Below the pieces are notes generated by a model that was not told the DNA's origin, made no database searches, and saw nothing but the letters and a program-made list of their open reading frames with translations. A stretch of 64,000 nucleotides of DNA from a virus: IMG/VR virus record IMGVR_UViG_3300021440_000017, positions 523-64,522 of that record; one strand, given 5' to 3'. Shown here one piece after another: positions 185-64,000 of this stretch. Position 1 is the stretch's first letter. Every line of letters begins with the position of its first letter. The position numbers were made by a program, and so were the translations under genes.

Positions 185-260
185 TGGTGCCGGCTGTCGG
201 GATCGAACTGACGACCTTCCGCTTACAAGGCGGGTGCTCTACCAACTGAGCTAAGCCGGC
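185..260 (-). tRNA. trnT: tRNA-Thr (anticodon TGT), CCA encoded
   Basis: Reverse complement GCCGGCT-TA-GCTC AGTTGGTA GAGC-A-CCCGC CTTGTAA GCGGA-AGGTC-GTCAG TTCGATC CCGAC-AGCCGGC-A-CCA gives a 76-nt cloverleaf. Confidence 0.95.
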
Positions 261-51755: not shown

Positions 51756-52331
51756 TCATTTCCGGTGCTCGGGTAGCAAGAACACGTGACGGATCGCCAT
51801 CTCCTGGTCGAACATGGCAGTACCCATCACCTCGTCCCAGTAGAACGAGAACGCGGACACCGTGCGTGGAGGCAACTGTTCTTCCAGTGCCGACACGTAC
51901 CGTCCGGTCTTGCGGCGAGCAACGCGGTCCCACACGCGGTCGTGCTGCTCTGCGCGGGCCGCTGGCGTGTACGTGAAGTACCGGTAGTACCGCTTGGACT
52001 CAGCGTACTCGATGGCGGCATCCAGTAGGATGCCCAAGCCGTTCATCGGAAGCCCGTTGCTTGCCGTTTGATCGCTGATGACGAGAAGCAGCAACCAGGC
52101 ACGCTGGCTCGTCATCAGCTTCTGCAACAGGTAGCACCAGATGCGCCCCTCGCTGTCCACGAGGCCCCAGGTGCGGTACATTTCGTTCTCGGGCACTAGG
52201 TACTGGTTCTCCAGGTAGTGCCGTGCGTACATCGGGTTGGCGAGGGGCGCACCGTCTATGTCAGTTGGGTTGCCCTGGCGGATGCGCATAAGTTGGTCGG
52301 CATGTTCGGGGCGGAGTCGGAGTACGTTCAT
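51756..52331 (-). CDS. GNAT-fold-like protein
   Basis: ..LRPEH..QL..I; G.GILLD.AIEYAES pattern. Confidence 0.5.
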   Translation of the reverse strand: MNVLRLRPEHADQLMRIRQGNPTDIDGAPLANPMYARHYLENQYLVPENEMYRTWGLVDSEGRIWCYLLQKLMTSQRAWLLLLVISDQTASNGLPMNGLGILLDAAIEYAESKRYYRYFTYTPAARAEQHDRVWDRVARRKTGRYVSALEEQLPPRTVSAFSFYWDEVMGTAMFDQEMAIRHVFLLPEHRK

Positions 52332-53317
52332 GTGCGTCCTAGTGGGTGGTTGATTAGCGAGAGCAGATCGCGGTACGGGATCTCCGTAGACGACCAGCAA
52401 CGGAAGGGCATGCTCGTGCGCACGGCTTCGGACTCCGTGAACACCTGCGTGAGTTCACGTTCGTAGCCCGTGTACTTCACGCGAGGTCGCAGTCCATAGG
52501 CACGGTCTTTCACGAGGTCCGAACTGTGAACCCGACGGTTGTACTGGCCGGCGACGAGGCGGACGAGAAACGGGTTCGCCAGATACGCAGCCCATAGCTC
52601 CAGACTGTACTGGTAGAACGACGGGATGACCCTGTGGTTGTCGGTCCAGTGCAGGTACTTCTGGAACGCAGGGAACCGCTCATGGTCGTGGAACATGAAC
52701 GTGCCCTTGCTGTAGTCTCCGTCGATCTGCGCTTGAAGGTCCGGCACGTAGTTGACCTCGGGTTCGTTGAACCCGGACACGAGGGCACCCGGTGTGTCGC
52801 GCACAGCGACGTACCACGGTGCGTAGCCCACATGCTTGCACTGGCTTACACGCGCGAGTTCACGAGCCTCACCGCTGTCGATCAGCACCTGCATGTCGAT
52901 GTCGAAAAATCGGTAGTCGAGCCCGAGCTTGTGCGCGAGTCGCAATGCCGGCACCAGATCGTGACGATTGCCTCCGCGCGCATGCCGGATCAGCAACGTA
53001 GTGAACGGGACACCAGCGTCCAAGAACCTCCGGACCATGTACTCGGAATCAAGGCCACCGCTGAGCATCAGCACCAGGTCTTCGCCGTGGAACCTGTCGG
53101 CGATAGCCCGAGCGTTGAGTACCGCTTCGTCACGTAGAGTACCAAGAGCCCTGGTGAGCCCTCGATTGATCTTCATCACGTACGTTGCGTCCTCGTGCAC
53201 ACGGAACAAGCCGGGGAACCCGGCGTACCCGTAAGCGAACCACGAGTCGGCAGTGAACCTCGGTGTGGGAACCAAGTTCAGGCGCACCCACGCTGCGACG
53301 AGTTCGTCATTGTCCAT
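52328..53317 (-). CDS. PP-loop adenine nucleotide alpha-hydrolase family protein
   Basis: LVLMLSGGLDSE. Confidence 0.7.
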   Translation of the reverse strand: MDNDELVAAWVRLNLVPTPRFTADSWFAYGYAGFPGLFRVHEDATYVMKINRGLTRALGTLRDEAVLNARAIADRFHGEDLVLMLSGGLDSEYMVRRFLDAGVPFTTLLIRHARGGNRHDLVPALRLAHKLGLDYRFFDIDMQVLIDSGEARELARVSQCKHVGYAPWYVAVRDTPGALVSGFNEPEVNYVPDLQAQIDGDYSKGTFMFHDHERFPAFQKYLHWTDNHRVIPSFYQYSLELWAAYLANPFLVRLVAGQYNRRVHSSDLVKDRAYGLRPRVKYTGYERELTQVFTESEAVRTSMPFRCWSSTEIPYRDLLSLINHPLGRT

Positions 53318-54020: not shown

Positions 54021-54803
54021 ATGTACGTCTCGGATCATGCACGTCGCATTCTCATTCCCATTCATCTGCTGTTCGCCGCAGTGACGGCCGCCTGGGTGTA
54101 CAACGGGGCTCACGTACCGTGGCCGGCAGCAGTTCTCGCCGTCGCATGGTGGACGCTGCTCTCTGGGCTTGGCATCGCCGTGGGATTCCACCGGTACTTC
54201 AGCCATCTGGCGTTTCCGGCCAAGCCGTGGGCGCGCAAGCTCATGCTCGGCGCCGGAACACTCGCTGGGCAGGGGTCACCGATCTTTTGGGTGGCGTTGC
54301 ACATGGGCTACCACCATCCGCATTCGGACGAACGGAAAGACGTGCACTCCCCGGTGCACGGCATCTGGTCTGCGTACATGGGGTGGATGATCCGGCTACG
54401 GCCTGACGATGTGAGTCTCAAGTACGCGGTGCGGTTGCTCAGGGACCCGCTGATCGTCACCGTGCATCAGCGGTACTACACGGTGTTCTGGCTGGCGTAC
54501 GCAGCGATACTCGGGATCGCAGCTACAGCAGGGCTACCGTACGTCATGGCCGTGATGACCGCGCTTATCGTCGCCGTACACCAGGAGTGCGCGGTGAACG
54601 TGCTGAACCACAGTCGCTGGTTCGGTTACGTGAACTACTACACGGGAGACAACAGCGTGAACAACGTGGTCACTGGCCTCTTGTGTTGGGGCCAGGGGTG
54701 GCACAACAACCACCATCAGTTGCCTGGCCGAGCGAACTTCGGTGTCCGATGGTTCGAGTACGACCCGACACGGTTGCTGATTCCCCTGGTTCGCGCACGC
54801 TGA
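54021..54803 (+). CDS. membrane fatty-acid desaturase (delta-9/OLE1-like)
   Basis: His boxes HRYFSH, HMGYHH, HNNHH; SD...D.HSP..G; VN.LNH; TM helices. Confidence 0.9.
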   Translation: MYVSDHARRILIPIHLLFAAVTAAWVYNGAHVPWPAAVLAVAWWTLLSGLGIAVGFHRYFSHLAFPAKPWARKLMLGAGTLAGQGSPIFWVALHMGYHHPHSDERKDVHSPVHGIWSAYMGWMIRLRPDDVSLKYAVRLLRDPLIVTVHQRYYTVFWLAYAAILGIAATAGLPYVMAVMTALIVAVHQECAVNVLNHSRWFGYVNYYTGDNSVNNVVTGLLCWGQGWHNNHHQLPGRANFGVRWFEYDPTRLLIPLVRAR

Positions 54804-54813
54804 GGACACGATC

Positions 54814-55887
54814 ATGAACGTAAACCCCGTTGAGCAGTTCCCCACCGCCGTGCTCTGGAAAGACCTGATGAGTCCCGAGGGCATTGTCGCCATGTCCAAG
54901 ACACTTGGTCCCGGCACCGTGTTCTTTCTCAATGCGGAACCTCGTGACTACGAGGAGTTCCGTGCGCTCGGCATCGACGTGCGCCCGCGGTCACAGGTGT
55001 CTACGTCGCTGGTCACCGTGGAACGACCAGGGCAGACGCAGATAACGGCGACTACGAGCGCGGCGTCCGCAGTCATGGGCAAGTCGTGGTCGCTGATCTG
55101 CGACGCCGGAGTCCGCACGTTCGTCGTCGAGAACGGCAAGGTGTGGTCCTCAGTGTGCAAACAGCGCAAGCTCATGGGTGTGCCCGACAAGTTCGAGATT
55201 TCTGATTACCCGACACGGTGCATGCGCAACGCCTGCGACTACCACTTCGACGCGCTGGCTCCGAAGCACGGCAGCGAGAACCTGGAACTCCCGAACTTCA
55301 GGAAGTTCGAGGTGCCCACGGAACTCGCATCGACAGTGGAAGACGTGCGCGTAGCGCTGCTCACGAAGCTGCAACGTGAGGAAGCAGGGTACGCAACAGG
55401 CGTCAATCGTCAACGGTATCCGAACACGCCGTTCAAGACCACGAGGTCAGTGCTACTGCGCAAGCACTGCAACATCCGGGCGTACAACTGGCAAGCGAAC
55501 CTGCAAGGGAGCTACGAAGACGTGGAGTGCGCGGATGATCCCACGTGGATGACTCCGTACTCGGAAGCAGGTGTATTCGCTCGTGAACTGCTGCCGAAGA
55601 TCGTCGGGGTCGAGTGGCAAGACATCGGCCAGATCATCCTGTCGAAGCTGCCGGCCGGAGAGGTCATCACCACGCACTGGGACGCCGGCTACTACTTCGA
55701 GTTCTACAACCGGTACCACTTCGTCCTCGATACGAACGACGACTGTGACTTCATGATCCGGGACGAGACAACGAACATGAAGGTTGGGAGCATCTACCGC
55801 ATCAACAACATCGTCCGGCACTCAGTGGCAAACCGGGGCACCACGGACCGTTATCACGTGGTCGTGGACGCGAGGTACCGTCGATGA
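54814..55887 (+). CDS. protein with C-terminal Asp/Asn beta-hydroxylase-like 2OG domain
   Basis: ITTHWD...RYH.VL...G.IYRINN..RHSVAN...DRYHVVVD. Confidence 0.8.
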   Translation: MNVNPVEQFPTAVLWKDLMSPEGIVAMSKTLGPGTVFFLNAEPRDYEEFRALGIDVRPRSQVSTSLVTVERPGQTQITATTSAASAVMGKSWSLICDAGVRTFVVENGKVWSSVCKQRKLMGVPDKFEISDYPTRCMRNACDYHFDALAPKHGSENLELPNFRKFEVPTELASTVEDVRVALLTKLQREEAGYATGVNRQRYPNTPFKTTRSVLLRKHCNIRAYNWQANLQGSYEDVECADDPTWMTPYSEAGVFARELLPKIVGVEWQDIGQIILSKLPAGEVITTHWDAGYYFEFYNRYHFVLDTNDDCDFMIRDETTNMKVGSIYRINNIVRHSVANRGTTDRYHVVVDARYRR

Positions 55888-57461
55888 CTGACGCAGTGGT
55901 GTTCGCGGGGTACTCCCGTGCGGCAATCGGGGTGAAGCCAGCGGGAGCACACATCATCGCCAACGTGTTTCGCCGTGCAGGACTCACTGCTGTCGTCATA
56001 GACATGTGCACGGTGCTCACCCGGGAGCAACGGCAGAAGCTGTTGCGTTCGCACGTGACGCCGTACACGAAGTTCGTGTGCCTGAGCACCACGTTGTTTG
56101 GGCTTGCCGGCGACATGGTTACGGAGATCGAGGAGGTGGATGCGAGCATGACCACGATGTTCGGAACCCTGCGGCGTCGCGCGCCGGCAGCGACGTTCAT
56201 CATAGGCGGGTCGAAGGTCACAGCGGGTGACCGCACGACCATGGACTTCGACTACGGAGTGATCGGGCAAGGCGAAACGACGTTGCTGGCAATCGTGAAC
56301 CACGTGCTGTACGGTGATCCCCTGGTCACGGACTTCACGGTGAACAACGTGCGGTACGTCAGCGACAAGACCTACCCGTACGGGACGTACAACACGGATG
56401 ATCTCCTGGAGTTCACGGCGGATGACGGAGTAGCTCCGGGAGAGACGCTACCACTGGAGTTCGGTCGCGGCTGCGTGTTCAAGTGCAGCTACTGCATGTA
56501 CGCGCTGACCGGCAAGGAGTTTGGTGACTACACGAAGCCCGCGAAGCTGCTGGCCGATGCCATGCGCCGGAATTACGAGCGCTTCGGGACCACCAGGTAC
56601 GTGCTGACCGACGACACGGTGAACGACAGCCTGGAGAAGGCCCGCGTGTGGGAAACGGCAGTGTCCATGCTGGACTTCCCGGTTGAGTTCGGCGGGTACA
56701 TGAGGCTCGAACTGTTCCACAAGTACCCGGAACTCATCGAGTTGTACGCGCGCACGGGGCTGCGCGCGGTGAACTTCGGCGTCGAAACCTTCAACAAGGT
56801 CGCGGGCTCAGCCGTCGGCAAGGGGTTCGGAGAACGCGGCCGTGACACGCTGCTGGCGCTGCGTGCTGCCTGGGGTGACAACGTACACGTGTCCACGAAC
56901 TTCATCATCGGATTGCCGACGGAGACAGAGGAGCAGATACGAGCAGATGCCGAGTGGCTCCGAAGAACTCGTGCCTGTCACTCTGCCACGTACTACAAGC
57001 TGCTGGTGGCCCGTGACCGGTCACAGCAGGGATTCGGACCGGAGTACGCCGGCTACTACCGCGAGACGGACGAGCCGTTGCCTCCGCAACTGGACTGGAC
57101 AGCGTACCTGCGTCGGTACATCAACTGGAAGTCCCCGTGCATGTCGTTGGCGCAAGCTCATCGGTTGCAAGTGGACCTGAACACCAAGTGGGAGAACTGG
57201 CGGTGGAGTCTCGACGCGACCGTTAGCGCCTTCGGCTTCATGGCGCTGCGTCGCTGGTACTCTCAGCACGAGTTGACGCACAGCACGCGCGTAGGCTACG
57301 CCGAGCACCTACGGGAAATCGCGGAACTCCGGCGTGACACGTACGCGGCACTCATGGCCGAAGTGCCCTCGACAAGGGGTAACCCGATACGTGTCACGCC
57401 CAAGATCGTGCCTGCTTCGTCGCTGGCGTTCGTGAACAAGTGGGACAAGCGAAAGGTCTGA
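55884..57461 (+). CDS. radical SAM enzyme with N-terminal B12-binding-like domain
   Basis: EFGRGCVFKCSYC (CxxxCxxC), DDTVN, FGVET, FIIGLPTET; N-terminal FIIGG. Confidence 0.85.
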   Translation: MTDAVVFAGYSRAAIGVKPAGAHIIANVFRRAGLTAVVIDMCTVLTREQRQKLLRSHVTPYTKFVCLSTTLFGLAGDMVTEIEEVDASMTTMFGTLRRRAPAATFIIGGSKVTAGDRTTMDFDYGVIGQGETTLLAIVNHVLYGDPLVTDFTVNNVRYVSDKTYPYGTYNTDDLLEFTADDGVAPGETLPLEFGRGCVFKCSYCMYALTGKEFGDYTKPAKLLADAMRRNYERFGTTRYVLTDDTVNDSLEKARVWETAVSMLDFPVEFGGYMRLELFHKYPELIELYARTGLRAVNFGVETFNKVAGSAVGKGFGERGRDTLLALRAAWGDNVHVSTNFIIGLPTETEEQIRADAEWLRRTRACHSATYYKLLVARDRSQQGFGPEYAGYYRETDEPLPPQLDWTAYLRRYINWKSPCMSLAQAHRLQVDLNTKWENWRWSLDATVSAFGFMALRRWYSQHELTHSTRVGYAEHLREIAELRRDTYAALMAEVPSTRGNPIRVTPKIVPASSLAFVNKWDKRKV

Positions 57462-57462
57462 C

Positions 57463-58017
57463 ATGGATTTCGGAGCGGACTTCCGATTGCTGGAAGCAGA
57501 AGTACCGGCACGGTTGTGCCTTCGTGCGGTTGCCGAGATACAAGAGCGTGCAGCCGCTGGGGACTTCGACAACGTAGACAACCGCGCGCGGCATCGGCTG
57601 TATCCCGAGTTGGCCGAAGCGGATGTCGTGTACCTACGAGCCCCTGTACTTCAGGGACAGCCCGGTGTGCGCGGCGACATACTGGACTGTGAGAACACGC
57701 CGGCGGTGGCGAAGTTCCCTTGGTGCTGGGTTGCACTGAGAACGGCGCTACCAGACGCCGTGTTCGGTCGTGTGATGGTCTCCCGTGTGGACGGTCCCGG
57801 TCGAGTAGCCACGCACGTGGACGCTGGTGCCATGGCCGTGCAACACCGAAGGCACCATGTGTGTCTCACAGTGGAAGACGCGGAGTTCACGGTGGGTACC
57901 ACGACAGTGAGGATGGAGCCGGGGTCCGTGTGGGAGATCAACAACCGACGGCCGCACTCGGTCACGAACCACAAAGGGCTACGGTTGCACCTGATCGCTG
58001 ACGTGGTTCCACGCTAA
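57463..58017 (+). CDS. Asp/Asn beta-hydroxylase-like 2OG-Fe(II) oxygenase
   Basis: VATHVD...RHHVCL...PGSVWEINN.RPHSVTN...RLHLIAD. Confidence 0.85.
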   Translation: MDFGADFRLLEAEVPARLCLRAVAEIQERAAAGDFDNVDNRARHRLYPELAEADVVYLRAPVLQGQPGVRGDILDCENTPAVAKFPWCWVALRTALPDAVFGRVMVSRVDGPGRVATHVDAGAMAVQHRRHHVCLTVEDAEFTVGTTTVRMEPGSVWEINNRRPHSVTNHKGLRLHLIADVVPR

Positions 58018-58047: not shown

Positions 58048-58371
58048 ATGGCTTACCAGATCAAAGTGCAAGTGACGAAGACGAAGCCCGGCGCGAGATT
58101 CCTGCGGGAAGTGCCGGTGGACGAACCGACGCGCAAAGCCGTGTACGACCTGTACGGGATCAAGGACGTGGCGACCGGCTACCTGGGTCGAACGTACACG
58201 AGTGACGACACCGGTGCGACCGAGACACTGACCGAGACGTGGGAGTCGAAGGCCGCGTGGCTGGCGTACCGGAAAGCGAACGCTGCGGCGGCCACGGCAG
58301 CGGACAAAGCAGGAGCAGCGTTTCACAAGGCGGAGGGCAACACGCTGTTGATTACCACCGTCGTAACCTGA
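58048..58371 (+). CDS. small protein, possible dimeric alpha+beta barrel (ABM-like)
   Basis: TETWESKAAW.AY; GAGG SD. Confidence 0.45.
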   Translation: MAYQIKVQVTKTKPGARFLREVPVDEPTRKAVYDLYGIKDVATGYLGRTYTSDDTGATETLTETWESKAAWLAYRKANAAAATAADKAGAAFHKAEGNTLLITTVVT

Positions 58372-59143: not shown

Positions 59144-59175
59144 GCCGGGCTGGCGCAAGTCACCCCGGCTTTTTT
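59144..59175 (+). terminator. rho-independent terminator
   Basis: GCCGGGCTG-N8-CACCCCGGC followed by T6. Confidence 0.75.
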
Positions 59176-59230: not shown

Positions 59231-60568
59231 ATGGGACTACGTATCGTTGTGAGCGACGCCGGCTACTACCCGTCCTTGGTAGACCGTCTCGTCTCCGAGG
59301 GACACACCGTACATCTGACGATGCCGAACTTGCCGCCGGGTGCAACGCTGGGCTACCTTCCCGGAGACGGCACGTACATGACGGATGAACAAGTGGTGCT
59401 CGCTGCCGTCGCCAACAGCATCGACCTGTACGTCGGCTTCGAGTTGGGCGACACGCTGGGCACGACGCTGCGGATGTTCGATCTGCCGGTGCTGATGCAC
59501 GACGAATCGGCCTTCCGTCTGGAGACGAACCGCGCGCTCGGCGCAGCGTTCATCCAGCACCGAGTCTCCGGTGTCCGCGTTGCCAAGGCACAGACGTTCG
59601 ACTCGTTGCCGGAAGTCAAGAAGTTCCTGGCGGGCAGCAAGAGCAAGCTCGTGGTGAAGCCGGCTCCGAACTCCGTCGGTCAGGCAGACAACGACCTGCG
59701 ATGCCACTTCAGCACACCGCCTCATCGCAACACGTTGGCGCTCGTGGCCGAAGATGGCGGGTACTTCGACGAAGACGGACAGGGTAGCGTTCGCATCGAG
59801 GAGTTCCTCCCTGGTGTGGAAACATGTGTGGGTTGCATGTTCGACGGCACGAAGTTCGACACCGTGTTCTACATCTGCCATGAGCACAAGGATGCGCAGA
59901 ACGATAGCCGCAGTGGCGTGCTCACGGGGGAGGTCGGCAGCACGCTGACATGGCACCACCGTGTACAGAATCCAGTGGTGGACGCGCTGCTGGACGAAGT
60001 GGCGCAGAGCCTGAAGGGCACTGGTGCGGGGTTCATCGACCTGAACCTCATGCTTGACCCCAAGAGGAAGACCGTGACGCTGATCGAGTGGACGGTGCGT
60101 TGGGGACGCCCGACAATGGAACTGGTGCTCGCCACGTACATGGGCGATTTCGGTGCCTACCTGCACAGGGCAGCGGCGGGCAAAATCGGCACGGTGGTCG
60201 CGGATTACGCGAAGGCAGCCCTGGGTATCGTGGTCTACCCATACGGCTATCCGTTGGTGCCAGGCAACGAGAAGCCACAGCAGTACCCTCCGTGCTTCAA
60301 GAAAACCAAGGGCGCTGCGCTGTACCCGCTGACGTGTGTGCGGCTGACCCCCACGACGTACATCGCGCAGGATCGGTACGCGGTGGCGGTCGCGGTGGCA
60401 GACACGATACCGAACACGGAGGAGCAAGTGCTGATGCTGCAAGCACGAGCAACGGCGCTAGCCGCTCGTATGGACATTCCAGGCAACACATGGCGTGACG
60501 ACATCGGCAGCCATTGGCTCGACGACCTGGAAACCGCACGTATCTGCCTGGGGCTCAACCGTGGTTAA
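59231..60568 (+). CDS. ATP-grasp amide ligase, PurD/GARS-like but divergent
   Basis: LVVKP, IEEFLPG.E, EHK......G.LTGE.GS, LIEW.VRWG.P; lacks GSGGREH. Confidence 0.8.
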   Translation: MGLRIVVSDAGYYPSLVDRLVSEGHTVHLTMPNLPPGATLGYLPGDGTYMTDEQVVLAAVANSIDLYVGFELGDTLGTTLRMFDLPVLMHDESAFRLETNRALGAAFIQHRVSGVRVAKAQTFDSLPEVKKFLAGSKSKLVVKPAPNSVGQADNDLRCHFSTPPHRNTLALVAEDGGYFDEDGQGSVRIEEFLPGVETCVGCMFDGTKFDTVFYICHEHKDAQNDSRSGVLTGEVGSTLTWHHRVQNPVVDALLDEVAQSLKGTGAGFIDLNLMLDPKRKTVTLIEWTVRWGRPTMELVLATYMGDFGAYLHRAAAGKIGTVVADYAKAALGIVVYPYGYPLVPGNEKPQQYPPCFKKTKGAALYPLTCVRLTPTTYIAQDRYAVAVAVADTIPNTEEQVLMLQARATALAARMDIPGNTWRDDIGSHWLDDLETARICLGLNRG

Positions 60569-61544
60569 CGAGACGACAGTCAGAGCCCTGGTGAACCAGG
60601 CGGATGCGGTGCCCCCTTTGGTACACGCCACCGTGGTCAAGCTCGTGGAAATAGAAGCGGGGCTCAACGCCGTGCTCAAGCCCGAGTTGGAACTGCTGCT
60701 GGACGAGCGTGTACTCCTCGTGGACGGTACAGCGAGAATGCAGTGGCGCGATGACATGTGGCATCCGTTCTTTCACGATCTGATTCCGTTTCCGGACTGG
60801 GACGTCGATGCACAGTCACTCGACCTCGTACTCGGGCACTGCGACGATGGCAAGACCGGGTTCAACCTCTACGGGTTCACCGAGGACATTGAATCCGTGC
60901 ACGAGCTTGCGGTGGAAACCGAAATCCACGTGTTCACGAGGGCCACGAGTGCTCCGCTAGCCCGGCTGAACTCGAAGCAACGGAATGCCATCGGCAACAC
61001 GGCGATACCCGAGGGCATGACGTTGCACCCGTGCGTTGACTCGTCGGTGTACCGGTTGCTTCCGCTCATGGTCAGTTCCTGGGTGTACAAGCACAACGTG
61101 GACGACGTGGGCAACCTCGTGCAAGAGATTTGTTCGTGGACGTACGTGGCCGAAGCGGCGAAGATGAACAGAGCCTGGCTGTGGATGCTGAAGTACGAGG
61201 AACAGCCGGTGTCGCTGATCGGCTTGGTACAGCACGACGAAGACACTGCGGTGTTCCAAGCGTTCTGGCAACTGCCCTTCGACTACGGGCTGAACAACGG
61301 ATACGATCCGAAGCGGCCGTTGGGCACGCTCATGCTCGCAAACGCGCTGACCACAGTGTCTCTTCAAGGCTTCGACACTGTGCTCACATGGCCGTCCTTT
61401 ACCGGACCCGGAGAGCCCATGAGCTACGAAGCGTACAAGCGCAAGTTCAGCAACGAACGCCGCGCCGCGTACTCGTACTACGGGACACACGGCAAAGCCA
61501 CACCACCGTACTATGACCTGACAACCAAGGAGCTACGCAAGTGA
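60561..61544 (+). CDS. GNAT-fold protein (Acetyltransf_6/FemAB-like)
   Basis: LGTLML.NAL...G......G..YEAYKRKF; GTG start overlapping upstream stop. Confidence 0.55.
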   Translation: MVNETTVRALVNQADAVPPLVHATVVKLVEIEAGLNAVLKPELELLLDERVLLVDGTARMQWRDDMWHPFFHDLIPFPDWDVDAQSLDLVLGHCDDGKTGFNLYGFTEDIESVHELAVETEIHVFTRATSAPLARLNSKQRNAIGNTAIPEGMTLHPCVDSSVYRLLPLMVSSWVYKHNVDDVGNLVQEICSWTYVAEAAKMNRAWLWMLKYEEQPVSLIGLVQHDEDTAVFQAFWQLPFDYGLNNGYDPKRPLGTLMLANALTTVSLQGFDTVLTWPSFTGPGEPMSYEAYKRKFSNERRAAYSYYGTHGKATPPYYDLTTKELRK

Positions 61545-62455
61545 AACCGTTGAAGATCGTGAAGGACTGGGACCACGTGTACGAGCACGCGGCGCTGTAC
61601 CGAATGGGTTTCGGACACGGGCCGGCGCACATCGCGTACGAGACGGTGCTGATGCTGCAAGTCCTCGACCGCGTGCTGAACACTGTGGACCCGATCACCG
61701 TGCTCGAACTCGGTTCGGGTCCGCGTTCGTTCTACAAGGACGCGTTCTTGCGCTACGCGCCGACTGCGCTGAAAGCTCCGGTTGCCAAGTACCTAGGCTC
61801 CGACTTCGTGGTCGAGCCGGGCGTTCGCGATGTGATCCCCTGGGACTTCACCAAGGTGCTGAAGACGAAGCTCCGCGTGAACGTCGTACTGATGCCCTAC
61901 TACCTCGTGAACTCGCTGATGGACTTCACGACGTTCAAGCCCATGAGTCAGCCACTGGTGCAGCAGTTCTGGAACTCGGTGTCCACAGTGCTCGAGCCCG
62001 GTGGCTTGCTCGTGGCGCACACGCCGTACCAGTCTGAGGCGAAGCGCGACCGGTGGAAACGCGAGAGGTTCATACAGCACGCGCTGATCGGCTACCACTT
62101 GGTGCCCGAAGTGGAAGCCGTGTTCGGCTTGCAACCAGGCACGTTGAAGACCCCGGTGTTCTACAAGTCGCACAGGTCAGTTGGGCACGACGACGTGTAC
62201 AACTGGGACACCGTGCGGCGCATCGTCATCAACGGGGAGACCACACGAGGTCAGCCTGTATCGCTGGAAGCACGGTTCCGCAAGTCCACGCTGTACTACC
62301 CGGTGGGCAAAATCCAGTACGTGCAGTCGCAGAAGCTCGTACCTGTGGCGAAGTTCTTGGATGCCGAGCGTGCGGACTTCGAGGACCTGGTGACACCGGT
62401 AGCTCTCAAGGCCTTCACGGACACGCAGTATTGGACGGTGTACCGCAATGCCTGA
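61541..62455 (+). CDS. class I SAM-dependent methyltransferase
   Basis: VLELGSGP motif I, YLGSD, VLEPGGLLV. Confidence 0.75.
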   Translation: MKPLKIVKDWDHVYEHAALYRMGFGHGPAHIAYETVLMLQVLDRVLNTVDPITVLELGSGPRSFYKDAFLRYAPTALKAPVAKYLGSDFVVEPGVRDVIPWDFTKVLKTKLRVNVVLMPYYLVNSLMDFTTFKPMSQPLVQQFWNSVSTVLEPGGLLVAHTPYQSEAKRDRWKRERFIQHALIGYHLVPEVEAVFGLQPGTLKTPVFYKSHRSVGHDDVYNWDTVRRIVINGETTRGQPVSLEARFRKSTLYYPVGKIQYVQSQKLVPVAKFLDAERADFEDLVTPVALKAFTDTQYWTVYRNA

Positions 62456-62918
62456 CGTGACGCTGTACGAAATCGAGTACGACCAGACCGTAGACACCGT
62501 GTACGATCTGCTGTCGTTGCTCGAAGAGTACCCTGTAGGCTGTGCGCCTGAAGACGTGGCACACTGGATGTCCAACTGGGATCGCTTCCGCATTGTGCTG
62601 GCCTACCGAAGGGGTAAACCAGTGGGGTTCGCCGTGGTGTTCGTCACACCCGGCTACAAAGAGATGCCCTTCGATGTGAACCACGTGCTGCTCGACGTGC
62701 TGTACGTTAGAGCCCGCTACCGTGGTCAGAACATCGGGCAGGTACTTGTGGACTACGTGAAGTCCGAGTACCCATCGGGATTCACCGTGCGCACGGACGT
62801 GGCCGACGCCATTCGCTTCTACAAGCGTGAAGGCTTTCGCGTGCTACAAACGGAGCCGCATGCGCTGGAACTAGGCACAACAGGGACGAGACTAGCATGG
62901 CAACCGAAGAAGCGATGA
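62448..62918 (+). CDS. GNAT acetyltransferase
   Basis: LYVRARYRGQNIG..L; AIRFYKREGF. Confidence 0.9.
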   Translation: MPDVTLYEIEYDQTVDTVYDLLSLLEEYPVGCAPEDVAHWMSNWDRFRIVLAYRRGKPVGFAVVFVTPGYKEMPFDVNHVLLDVLYVRARYRGQNIGQVLVDYVKSEYPSGFTVRTDVADAIRFYKREGFRVLQTEPHALELGTTGTRLAWQPKKR

Positions 62919-63664
62919 GCGTAGGGGACTCGAAGGTCGAGCACGCCGTCCGCACGCTAGCGAAGATGGCGCAGGTCTATGGGGCTCACGAGTTCCAGAT
63001 GCAGTACGAGCACTTCAGCATCGGCGAGTTGCCTTACGAGGTCAGAGAGACAGGAGATCGTGGGTTCATCCCCATACCGTTCGCTCAGATGGAGTTTCCG
63101 GCAGAGTGGGAGACCGTGCTCAACGCGCTAGGTCAAGAACGAGCGTCGCTTATCCGGGTCGTAGACGATGGGTCCTCGGACTGCGTGGTGGACGTACCCG
63201 CAACCAAGGAACTGCTGTGGAAGCAGCAGCGGAGATTCGCACGCACATGGGTCGAGAACCTGGTATTCACGACGGAGGCGCCTGCGACATCCGTGATCGA
63301 AGAACTGCTGGAGTCGAACAAGAAGCGGTGGCTAGCCCGAGGTATCGTCCAAGAACCTGGCTCCCTGGCGACGACGCTACTGCGGTTGGCACACGTCTTC
63401 GGTCCACGTACCGTCTACTACGTGTGGGACGCCTCTAAACTCATCGCCGTGATCGAGACGCAGGATCTTCCATCGGGACCGACGTATTGGGTAAATACCT
63501 ACCTATGCGCGGACGCCAACCGTAGTGGTCTTGGCAACACGTGCCTGCTGTACCTGATGCTTCAGCATCTAGGGCACTCCGTAGACCTTGGAATCTCGAT
63601 CCTGGAGTACAAAGCGCTGTGGAAACCACGTATCACGTCTGTCAAGGGGTTTGACTGGCTATGA
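62915..63664 (+). CDS. GNAT-fold protein (Acetyltransf_6-like)
   Basis: GLGNTCLL.L...VDLGIS..EYKALW; ATGA overlap (alternative start 62897). Confidence 0.6.
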   Translation: MSVGDSKVEHAVRTLAKMAQVYGAHEFQMQYEHFSIGELPYEVRETGDRGFIPIPFAQMEFPAEWETVLNALGQERASLIRVVDDGSSDCVVDVPATKELLWKQQRRFARTWVENLVFTTEAPATSVIEELLESNKKRWLARGIVQEPGSLATTLLRLAHVFGPRTVYYVWDASKLIAVIETQDLPSGPTYWVNTYLCADANRSGLGNTCLLYLMLQHLGHSVDLGISILEYKALWKPRITSVKGFDWL

Positions 63665-64000
63665 AGAAAGCTCTGTGCGTCTTCGCGCATCCTGATGACT
63701 CGTTCCTCTTCGCGCACAACATCAGACGCAGCACCCCTGATGTCGAGTGGTTCGATCTGTGCCTCACGTACCGTGCAGATCAGCGCAGAGGTCGAGAGTT
63801 CGTACAGGCCTGCGCCATCATGGAATCGCAGCCGTTGCTAGCGGGGCTCATCGACAACGTGTATGAGACGCCAGCACCGAGCGTGTACCAAGAGGCAGTA
63901 ACGCATACCCTGGGTACCGCAGGCTTGACCTTGGATGACTTCACTACGGTGGTCACGCACAATCCAGTTGGCGAGTACGGGCATGGTCATCACAAAGCTG
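63661..64000 (+). CDS. PIG-L/LmbE family de-N-acetylase, runs off window end
   Basis: LCVFAHPDD and VVTHNPVGEYGHGHH; not in ORF track. Confidence 0.85.
   Translation, partial: MKKALCVFAHPDDSFLFAHNIRRSTPDVEWFDLCLTYRADQRRGREFVQACAIMESQPLLAGLIDNVYETPAPSVYQEAVTHTLGTAGLTLDDFTTVVTHNPVGEYGHGHHKA

Follow-up and report, generated by a model that had tools for sequence, protein, structure and literature searches.

To our knowledge, eight 7-deazaguanine bases have been described from phage DNA, all of them small. The phage pathways known for this chemistry all end in DNA, and one of their enzymes, DpdN of the PurN superfamily, formylates the amine of preQ1 (PMC10516641). In Streptomyces, the QueC homologue RoyL adenylates 7-carboxy-7-deazaguanine (CDG) and links it by an amide bond to lysine, ornithine, diaminobutyrate or D-Ala-D-Ala; the clusters in which it is found also hold ATP-grasp, S-adenosylmethionine (SAM) methyltransferase, beta-hydroxylase, TauD and fatty-acid desaturase genes (preprint 10.64898/2026.04.15.718813). 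In huimycin, a glycosyltransferase and a methyltransferase act on preQ0 itself (PMC7439116). We describe here a ten-gene operon that begins near the end of a 64,000-nucleotide viral stretch (the window), which comprises bases 523-64522 of the 83.1-kb IMG/VR viral contig IMGVR_UViG_3300021440_000017, estimated to be 34% complete, and has a guanine plus cytosine (G+C) content of 62%. More than a dozen unrelated phages carry the enzyme set of this operon next to 7-deazaguanine genes, and therefore its product is probably a form of this base that bears amino acids and a sugar. We propose, at about even chances, that the operon is a phage tailoring cassette representing a new branch of 7-deazaguanine chemistry, whose product would be an aminoacylated, methylated and amino-sugar-bearing base, most likely located in DNA.

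The operon extends on the plus strand from 59231 to 66975, where positions above 64000 are window-equivalent coordinates taken from locus L003 on the same record. Its junctions are overlaps of 4 to 22 nt or gaps of less than 12 nt, the overlaps including GTGA at 61541, 8 nt at 62448, 22 nt at 62897 and ATGA at 63661. The first gene encodes a PurD-like ATP-grasp carboxylate-amine ligase of 445 aa (59231-60568), the founding member of the cassette, which was identified by PF01071 and by its family profile and has a GGAG located 8 nt upstream of its start. It is followed by Fem1 (60561 or 60591, both GTG, to 61544), assigned from structure matches to the tandem GNAT proteins of FemX/MprF type; by NMT, a class I SAM-methyltransferase-like protein of 304 aa (61541-62455) recognized by alignment motifs and a structural model; by a small GNAT N-acetyltransferase of 156 aa (62448-62918); by Fem2, a second Fem-like protein of Acetyltransf_6 type with 255 aa (62897-63664); and by a PIG-L/LmbE-like metal-dependent de-N-acetylase of 177 aa (63661-64194), 113 of them inside the window. 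The window thus holds the first six genes. The remaining four, which lie beyond it on the contig, encode a GT-B glycosyltransferase (GT; 64182-65210), a second SAM methyltransferase (65207-65791; PF13489, 6.7e-12), a QueC-like PP-loop ligase (65792-66568) and a small HAD-like open reading frame (ORF) of 131 aa (66580-66975, L003:4003-4398). The initial annotation, made from the window alone, had described six overlapping genes forming one operon that continued past the window end; the ORFs are as it placed them, and the four further genes confirm the continuation. By direct reading of the plus strand, a terminator-like hairpin (GCCGGG...CCCGGC followed by T6; 59144..59175) divides the upstream small genes from the operon. 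It was not seen by a consensus terminator scan because its loop is 14 nt long.

Sixteen ligase-encoding loci, with G+C contents of 38 to 62%, were collected from Logan, ENA, JGI and IMG/VR, and protein families were mapped among them by iterated hidden Markov model searches. The Fem1 family adjoins the ligase in 15 of them, and the other one, L031, ends inside the ligase gene. In 13 of the 16 loci, QueC-like genes, in one to three copies, are located no more than 10 kb away. A further locus, L013, has two copies at a distance of about 48 kb (in record coordinates) on its 68-kb record, and the two loci without a QueC-like gene (L014 and L032) have less than 1 kb of upstream flank each. The NMT family is present in most loci and in most of those of type B as defined below, with two copies in L007, L013 and L029, and the Fem2 family is present in half of the loci (8/16), among them L018, L015 (two copies), L016, L029 and L031. 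The PIG-L-like and GT genes are common only to this phage and L015, a 38%-G+C phage, and are missing from the other 14 loci, including the closest relative, L004. This relative, whose ligase is 51% identical and which shares the synteny with GH19 and TopoIB genes, lacks the PIG-L-like protein, the GT and the second methyltransferase, and is the only one of the surveyed loci with an orthologue of the small GNAT. Since the QueC-like proteins, Fem2, ligase, Fem1 and NMT persist across loci, they make up a conserved unit to which the sugar enzymes are add-ons. The core found in unrelated phages consists of one to three QueC-like PP-loop ligases, the PurD-like ligase, one or two Fem/MprF-like proteins and the amine-N-methyltransferase-like protein, and it is accompanied in every case by genes of the deazaguanine pathway. 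Conserved co-occurrence, which the initial annotation had named as a check, proved to be strong. Its account of the pathway, which started with the PIG-L enzyme freeing the amine of an N-acetyl sugar, did not hold: PIG-L and GT cannot be the entry point, as they are absent from L004 and from most loci.

Two layouts were distinguished. Type B, that of the window, has divergent QueC-like genes with Fem2, ligase, Fem1 and NMT, while type A (L012 and L030) combines a full preQ1 pathway and DpdA with the ligase and Fem1. In L012, which belongs to record G001 (80% complete), and in L030 the gene order is FolE, ligase, Fem1, QueF, canonical QueC and DpdA. FolE, directly upstream of the ligase, was matched at 1e-25 in these type A loci; the QueF of L012 matched PDB 4f8b at 2.7e-13; and DpdA, directly after QueC, was found with Vibrio K251 and Arthrobacter Sonali proteins and carries a DSGAF motif. 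QueF of L012 (11318-11716, minus strand), which is flanked by the Fem-like gene and QueC, runs against the direction of an otherwise co-directional cluster, and the QueF homologue of L030 (13718-14155) is co-directional with a degenerate QueF motif. A QueE-like gene immediately follows the cassette in L007 (phrog_2076, 3.9e-42) and another is on record G001 (6.5e-31), with others in L013, L029 and L030, and QueD is present on G001 (91 bits) and in L030. In L004 (L004:14528-16002), a QueC with canonical substrate motifs and no Zn-binding cysteines is followed by a stand-alone ArcS2-like core protein of 214 aa, which carries exactly the ArcS core motif C-x3-KPY-x2-S-x2-H (PMC10516641). The wedging of the ligase/Fem pair between FolE, QueF, QueC and DpdA in type A loci points to a product in DNA. 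So does the location of the cassette among replication genes in L007, L010, L016 and L017, and so does the fact that the known phage deazaguanine pathways all end there.

The QueC-like protein of the operon was matched by PF06508 (4.5e-18) and phrog_1550 (3e-20). It contains the PP-loop SGGLDS and a C-terminal C-x7-C-x2-C-x2-C, in which the canonical Zn-binding spacing would be x8. Its score against TIGR00364 was 54.8 bits, under the cut-off of 150.3. Canonical QueC proteins have the substrate motifs YxQxHxxE, VPxRN and YPDC (PMC13329287); at these places the phage protein has YGQPYLTKE, which lacks the His, VFGRN as a partial match, and VRDK. The corresponding RoyL residues are Tyr41, His45 and Glu48 and Arg104, Asn105, Asp132 and Cys139 (preprint 10.64898/2026.04.15.718813), and a check against this residue list indicated that the Arg/Asn and Asp equivalents are kept while those of His and Cys are not. 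The initial annotation was blind to this gene because it lies 1.8 kb beyond the window. A second PP-loop protein of 329 aa, with the motif LSGGLDSEY, is encoded in the divergent upstream cluster of the window (52328-53317, minus strand); its N-terminal match to PF06508 is weak (E 0.005), and phmmer showed no homology between it and the QueC-like genes in the remaining loci. Given that type B loci often carry two or three QueC-like genes, it may be the second one of this phage.

PurD joins the carboxylate of glycine to an amine. The phage ligase resembles this enzyme (GAR synthetase, EC 6.3.4.13; TIGR00877; PDB 1gso, 2yw2 and 2yrw) in its three-domain ATP-grasp architecture and in the kept ATP-binding Lys and Glu, and by analogy the joining of an amino-acid carboxylate and an amine is its likely chemistry. 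The ATP-grasp A domain is present (PF01071, GARS_A; 34.7 bits, cut-off 27), and a profile of 40 ligase family members retrieved only PurD chains from the PDB (1e-33 to 1e-22), aligned at positions 50-434, that is, nearly over the full length. It differs from PurD in scoring far under the purD equivalog cut-off (TIGR00877, 66.4 versus 288 bits), in lacking the GxGGREH loop of the N domain (its N-terminus reads VVSDAGYYPSLVDRLVSEGH), in having IEWTVRWGRPT where PurD has EFNxRFGDPE, and in its context, which holds no purine pathway. Within this ExTxRxGxP motif, T288 and R290 are invariant among the 40 members, and the T replaces the Mg-binding N of PurD. The best 150 matches of the profile among 1.84 billion representatives all had the ExTxRxGxP form and none (0/150) that of PurD. 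Judged by its sequences, the family is a PurD paralogue that fails the defining motifs and cut-off of PurD, and the retention of the ATP-grasp core with loss of the N-domain loop makes a different amine acceptor likely. The initial annotation had quoted ATP-grasp motifs, EWTVRWGRP and a missing GSGGREH loop, all of which are as it stated, and its view that a role in purine synthesis is improbable is well supported by these results. The narrow subfamily with G[RC]P comprises about 36 clusters, far fewer than the wider T-type PurD-like group, whose sampled members are all metagenomic proteins. Among GenBank phages, tblastn with the ligase gave no family-level match, with two hits at 22-24% identity only, and a single-sequence scan of IMG/VR found no relatives. 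A pattern scan of 185,579 species genomes, limited to the motif, showed the family to be all but absent, with one weak match, at 22% identity, in an Acidobacteriota metagenome-assembled genome.

Pfam searches with Fem1 and Fem2 themselves gave no match. An AlphaFold model of Fem1 built with 15 homologues (pLDDT 67.5, pTM 0.73) had as its top Foldseek matches in the PDB the C-terminal domain of MprF (5vrv/7duw), A-PGS (4v35) and FemX (7z6a/1ne9), with probability 1.0, and its structure matches in the Atlas were PF13480/PF02388 clusters at TM 0.64-0.72. The feature and structure matches of Fem2 in the Atlas were PF13480/FemAB clusters; over both proteins the Atlas TM values ranged from 0.55 to 0.72, in agreement with a tandem GNAT fold. 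In addition, the L012 gene at the Fem1 position matches PF13480 itself (27.2 bits, cut-off 22), and jackhmmer joined Fem2 to L004:13698-14531, which also carries PF13480 above the cut-off. At the sequence level, the Fem1 and Fem2 profiles were not linked to any PDB entry, and hhalign of one against the other gave a probability of only 4%. From models and fold matches, both are probably Fem/MprF-like and hence putative transferases of the aminoacyl-tRNA-dependent type. They share with FemX/FemABX and the MprF C-terminal domain (PF02388, PF13480, PF09924) the tandem-GNAT fold of about 320 residues, these being the best structural matches for Fem1 and the best Atlas matches for the two proteins; they are unlike them in having no sequence-level Pfam match in this phage, and the context rules out lipid II or phosphatidylglycerol as the acceptor here. 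The small GNAT matched PF00583 (1.2e-11) and PF13508 (3.1e-11), as well as the acetyltransferase family phrog_1249. The three GNAT folds reported by the initial annotation are therefore one clear Pfam GNAT, at 62448, and two tandem-GNAT proteins of the Fem/MprF-like kind.

NMT has a SAM motif I, VLELGSG, in the alignment and a class I SAM-methyltransferase fold, in accordance with the earlier assignment of a SAM methyltransferase to this gene. Its model is weak (pLDDT 56). The top Foldseek matches were CalS10, CypM, TylM1, DesVI and CcbJ, so that the nearest folds are amine N-methyltransferases; its Atlas feature matches were methyltransferase clusters, and a homologue search with NMT as the query returned the query alone. 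The PIG-L-like protein keeps the motifs AHPDD and HNPxGEYGHxHHK (GHGHH), and AHPDD and GHGHH are invariant with the L015 orthologue, which is 38% identical. It had been called a PIG-L deacetylase, and its motifs agree with this; its PF02585 match (2.3e-5, 25.3 bits) stays under the cut-off of 28.2. The GT was matched by PF00534 at 4e-4, likewise keeps the motifs of its family and has an L015 orthologue at 33% identity, and sequence searches of the PDB with the PIG-L and GT profiles gave no match. The initial annotation had suggested looking downstream for glycosyltransferases or base hydroxymethylases; the former were found in this GT-B protein, and no link to ThyA or a hydroxymethylase was seen. 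A route through thymidylate synthase/hydroxymethylase enzymes (5-hydroxymethyldeoxyuridine or 5-hydroxymethyldeoxycytidine) was considered and is unsupported, ThyA being present in G002 and, near DHFR, on the L018 record, and absent from this contig. The last gene of the operon begins with MIAYDLDGVLVSD and was named HAD-like from its DxDGVL motif only, which is of the HAD-type DxDG form; it had no Pfam match and no homologue in the other loci.

Taken together, these assignments suggest the following pathway. Phage or host enzymes would first make CDG or, in some lineages, preQ1. The QueC-like protein would then adenylate the carboxylate of CDG and couple an amine or amino acid in place of ammonia, by analogy with RoyL, and the PurD-like ligase could add glycine or another amino acid onto a free amine. 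The obvious acceptor for the ligase of type A loci would be the aminomethyl group of preQ1, in parallel to DpdN, and in those of type B the pathway is likely to begin with the divergent QueC-like proteins. The Fem-like proteins may extend the chain with aminoacyl groups from aminoacyl-tRNA, and the N-methyltransferase and the GNAT may cap the terminal amine. In this phage and in one other lineage, the GT-B enzyme would add an N-acetylhexosamine which the PIG-L-like protein would de-acetylate. The predicted product is a hypermodified guanine replacement in virion DNA that would block restriction and CRISPR nucleases.

We hold it highly probable that the cassette performs deazapurine chemistry, and the prospects that its product is a DNA base seem to us about evenly balanced. 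More specifically, and only tentatively, since we find it somewhat doubtful, guanine in the DNA of many phage lineages may be replaced by a 7-deazaguanine with a short N-methylated amino-acid chain, built by the PurD paralogue and tRNA-using Fem/MprF-like enzymes and bearing here also a de-acetylated amino sugar. Several observations weigh against a modified DNA base. DpdA was sought with PF01702, a three-sequence DpdA1/2 profile, the DpdA3 of phiST (CGPG_00065) and hhalign of all mid-sized ORFs: neither a DpdA of subfamilies 1-3 nor a TGT was found on this 83-kb contig, the type B loci had no DpdA in the 10 kb around the cassette, and none was present in about 30 kb of additional replication-region sequence from the relative behind L018, which encodes a primase with a probable intein, RNase H, DHFR, ThyA, a PIF1 helicase and NT5C. 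FolE, QueD and QueE are likewise absent from this contig, where the QueC-like gene stands alone, so that CDG would have to be supplied by the host or by genes in the two thirds of the genome that were not seen. As the QueC-like protein has neither YPDC nor the His of YxQxHxxE, its substrate may not be CDG. The operon of this lineage is placed in the late/lysis region and not with replication genes, the PIG-L and GT calls are under the Pfam cut-offs, and each enzymatic step is read from fold or family, with two models of modest quality (pLDDT 56 and 67.5). Because the contig is 34% complete, DpdA may simply be unseen; for this phage the cassette cannot be filed as a Dpd system as long as it is. 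The primase of the relative behind L018 (L035:17845-19821, minus strand; DnaG/Toprim) had Hom_end and LAGLIDADG_3 matches, which suggests the insertion of an intein/homing endonuclease.

The same lack of DpdA bears on another explanation, in our opinion an unlikely one, by which the operon makes a free peptidyl-7-deazapurine metabolite during infection, not in DNA, an analogue of roseomycin, huimycin or dapiramicin with a possible role as antibiotic, enzyme inhibitor or signal. Type B loci, this one included, are without a nearby DNA transglycosylase, and the absence of this enzyme is a criterion for 7-deazapurine metabolite clusters (preprint 10.64898/2026.04.15.718813). The repertoire of QueC-like amide synthetase, ATP-grasp, SAM methyltransferase, beta-hydroxylases and fatty-acid desaturase also matches, and huimycin offers a precedent for a GT and a methyltransferase acting on preQ0 (PMC7439116). 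On the other hand, the operon has no transporter or regulator, L012 and L030 hold their ligase/Fem pair between FolE/QueF/QueC and DpdA, DNA is the end point of every 7-deazaguanine pathway known from phages (PMC10516641), and the missing DpdA may lie in the unseen part of the genome.

It is quite improbable, in addition, that the system is centred on a sugar, with PIG-L exposing an amine on the N-acetyl sugar of a virion glycan, lipopolysaccharide (LPS) or other glycoconjugate and the ligase and GNATs re-acylating it in the manner of mycothiol or bacillithiol. The GT-B enzyme, PIG-L, ligase, GNAT and a possible HAD phosphatase do stand in a single operon of the late/lysis region, and PIG-L and GT recur together in L015. 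However, the ligase, Fem-like and QueC-like proteins persist in the 14 of 16 loci from which PIG-L and GT are missing, the closest relative among them; the cassette lies among replication and nucleotide-metabolism genes in other lineages; and the constant QueC-like, QueE, FolE and DpdA partners would be left without explanation. A mycothiol- or aminoglycoside-type reading of GT, PIG-L, ligase and GNAT was considered and rejected, as L004 has the core without GT and PIG-L. The initial annotation had listed a hypermodified DNA base, virion glycans and host LPS as possible targets; the first is favoured by the survey, and no link of the cassette to the other two was found.

Very improbable is a third possibility, in which the QueC-like protein attaches a deazaguanine to the N-terminus of a protein, as in Cap9 and QatC, or in which the phage counters such a defence by consuming CDG or mimicking the conjugate. 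QueC-family enzymes have been repurposed to conjugate proteins in the type IV CBASS and Qat anti-phage systems (PMC13329287), and the phage protein has a weak NCBIfam match to QatC (2e-4); at 20 bits this is far from the cut-off of 280, neither a TGT-like Cap10 nor QatB/QatD partners are present, Fem-like and PurD-like partners are foreign to CBASS/Qat systems, and several lineages carry the full preQ1 pathway with DpdA. Finally, an ordinary auxiliary PurD among unrelated morons is effectively refuted by the sequence, since, even with PurD as the best named relative of the ligase, the score of 66 against 288 bits, the absent GxGGREH loop and EFNxRFGDPE motif, the lack of any other pur gene and the gene order fixed across 16 loci all speak against it.

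With respect to the surroundings of the operon, the minus strand of the window carries the early genes and the plus strand those for structural proteins, lysis and enzymes, and a GH19 lysin and a type IB topoisomerase are located on the 3′ side of the operon. Upstream, also on the plus strand, Pfam identified a fatty-acid desaturase (54021-54803), two Asp/Asn beta-hydroxylase-like genes (54814-55887 and 57463-58017) and a B12-binding radical SAM protein (55884-57461). A comparable group precedes the cassette of L018 (L018:1953-5224), with FA_desaturase, a P-loop nucleotide kinase (PF18751), Asp_Arg_Hydrox, TauD and GNAT genes. The TauD, fatty-acid desaturase and Asp/Asn hydroxylase families are tailoring enzymes in bacterial 7-deazapurine clusters (preprint 10.64898/2026.04.15.718813), and the genes between 54021 and 58017 may possibly be tied to the cassette as oxidative tailoring functions; unrelated lineages lack such families in the vicinity of the cassette. 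A gene at 58048-58371 (plus strand), called holin-like in the initial annotation, had a faint match to ABM, antibiotic biosynthesis monooxygenase (E 0.01, 16.5 bits), too weak for a call. The only tRNA of the window is a tRNA-Thr with a TGT anticodon (185-260, minus strand).

If the proposed pathway is true, it would represent a new family of peptide-like deazaguanine decorations, glycosylated in this phage, and three types of enzyme would be added to those that modify nucleobases, namely a PurD paralogue, Fem-like transferases dependent on tRNA, and an amine N-methyltransferase. A DNA base made with tRNA-bound amino acids would be the first to be aminoacylated in a tRNA-dependent manner, and it would greatly exceed in size all deazaguanine modifications known so far. 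Bases of this bulk should protect against restriction enzymes, CRISPR nucleases and defences based on DNA glycosylases, and they would provide useful handles for DNA chemistry. A free metabolite, were that to be the product, would be equally new, as a rare virus-borne natural-product pathway. Whichever of these holds, the ligase family is a marker by which the loci are easily found. Full-text literature searches for the enzyme combination gave no published description, in agreement with the initial annotation, which had not recognized the set as a described phage system.

Among the systems already known, mycothiol and bacillithiol synthesis (MshA/BshA of GT4, MshB/BshB of PIG-L, the ligases MshC/BshC and the GNAT MshD) shares with this operon the order GT-B, PIG-L, amino-acid ligase and GNAT. 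It differs from it in that the phage ligase is an ATP-grasp enzyme and not of MshC/BshC type, that the GT and PIG-L are dispensable in most relatives, and that QueC-like proteins are the constant partners. The pathways of huimycin and dapiramicin (SAM methyltransferase HuiC and glycosyltransferase HuiG; PMC7439116) are alike by enzyme type, with a glycosyltransferase that places N-acetylglucosamine on 7-deazaguanine and a SAM methyltransferase beside QueC-family genes; huimycin, an actinomycete metabolite, involves neither a de-N-acetylation step nor amino-acid ligases. Comparable, too, are the peptidyl 7-deazapurine clusters of Streptomyces (roseomycin A, RoyL; preprint 10.64898/2026.04.15.718813), in which a divergent QueC homologue is likewise accompanied by ATP-grasp, SAM methyltransferase, beta-hydroxylase, TauD-type and fatty-acid desaturase proteins and the chemistry is the joining of the CDG carboxylate to an amino-acid amine. 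These are bacterial, metabolite-making clusters with regulators, their ATP-grasp protein belongs to PF13535 and is not PurD-like, and they have no Fem-like proteins. Compared with the phage Dpd systems (DpdA with FolE/QueD/QueE/QueC and, in some cases, QueF, ArcS2, Gat-QueC and DpdL/M/N; PMC6884629, PMC10516641), the PurD-like ligase, the Fem-like tandem GNATs, the TylM1/CypM-like methyltransferase, PIG-L and GT occur in no described Dpd pathway, the side chains of the eight Dpd bases bear at most a methyl or formyl group, and the signature enzyme DpdA (PMC10516641) and the genes for CDG synthesis were not seen on this contig. The Dpd systems are, like this operon, phage-borne with a QueC-family gene; relatives of the cassette have FolE, QueD, QueE, QueF, ArcS2 and DpdA by the same ligase; and DpdN, which is PurN-like, provides the precedent of a purine-pathway paralogue that decorates preQ1. 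By analogy, the cassette would act as a tailoring branch within phage 7-deazaguanine pathways, in a way that also resembles the peptidyl-deazapurine clusters of bacteria.

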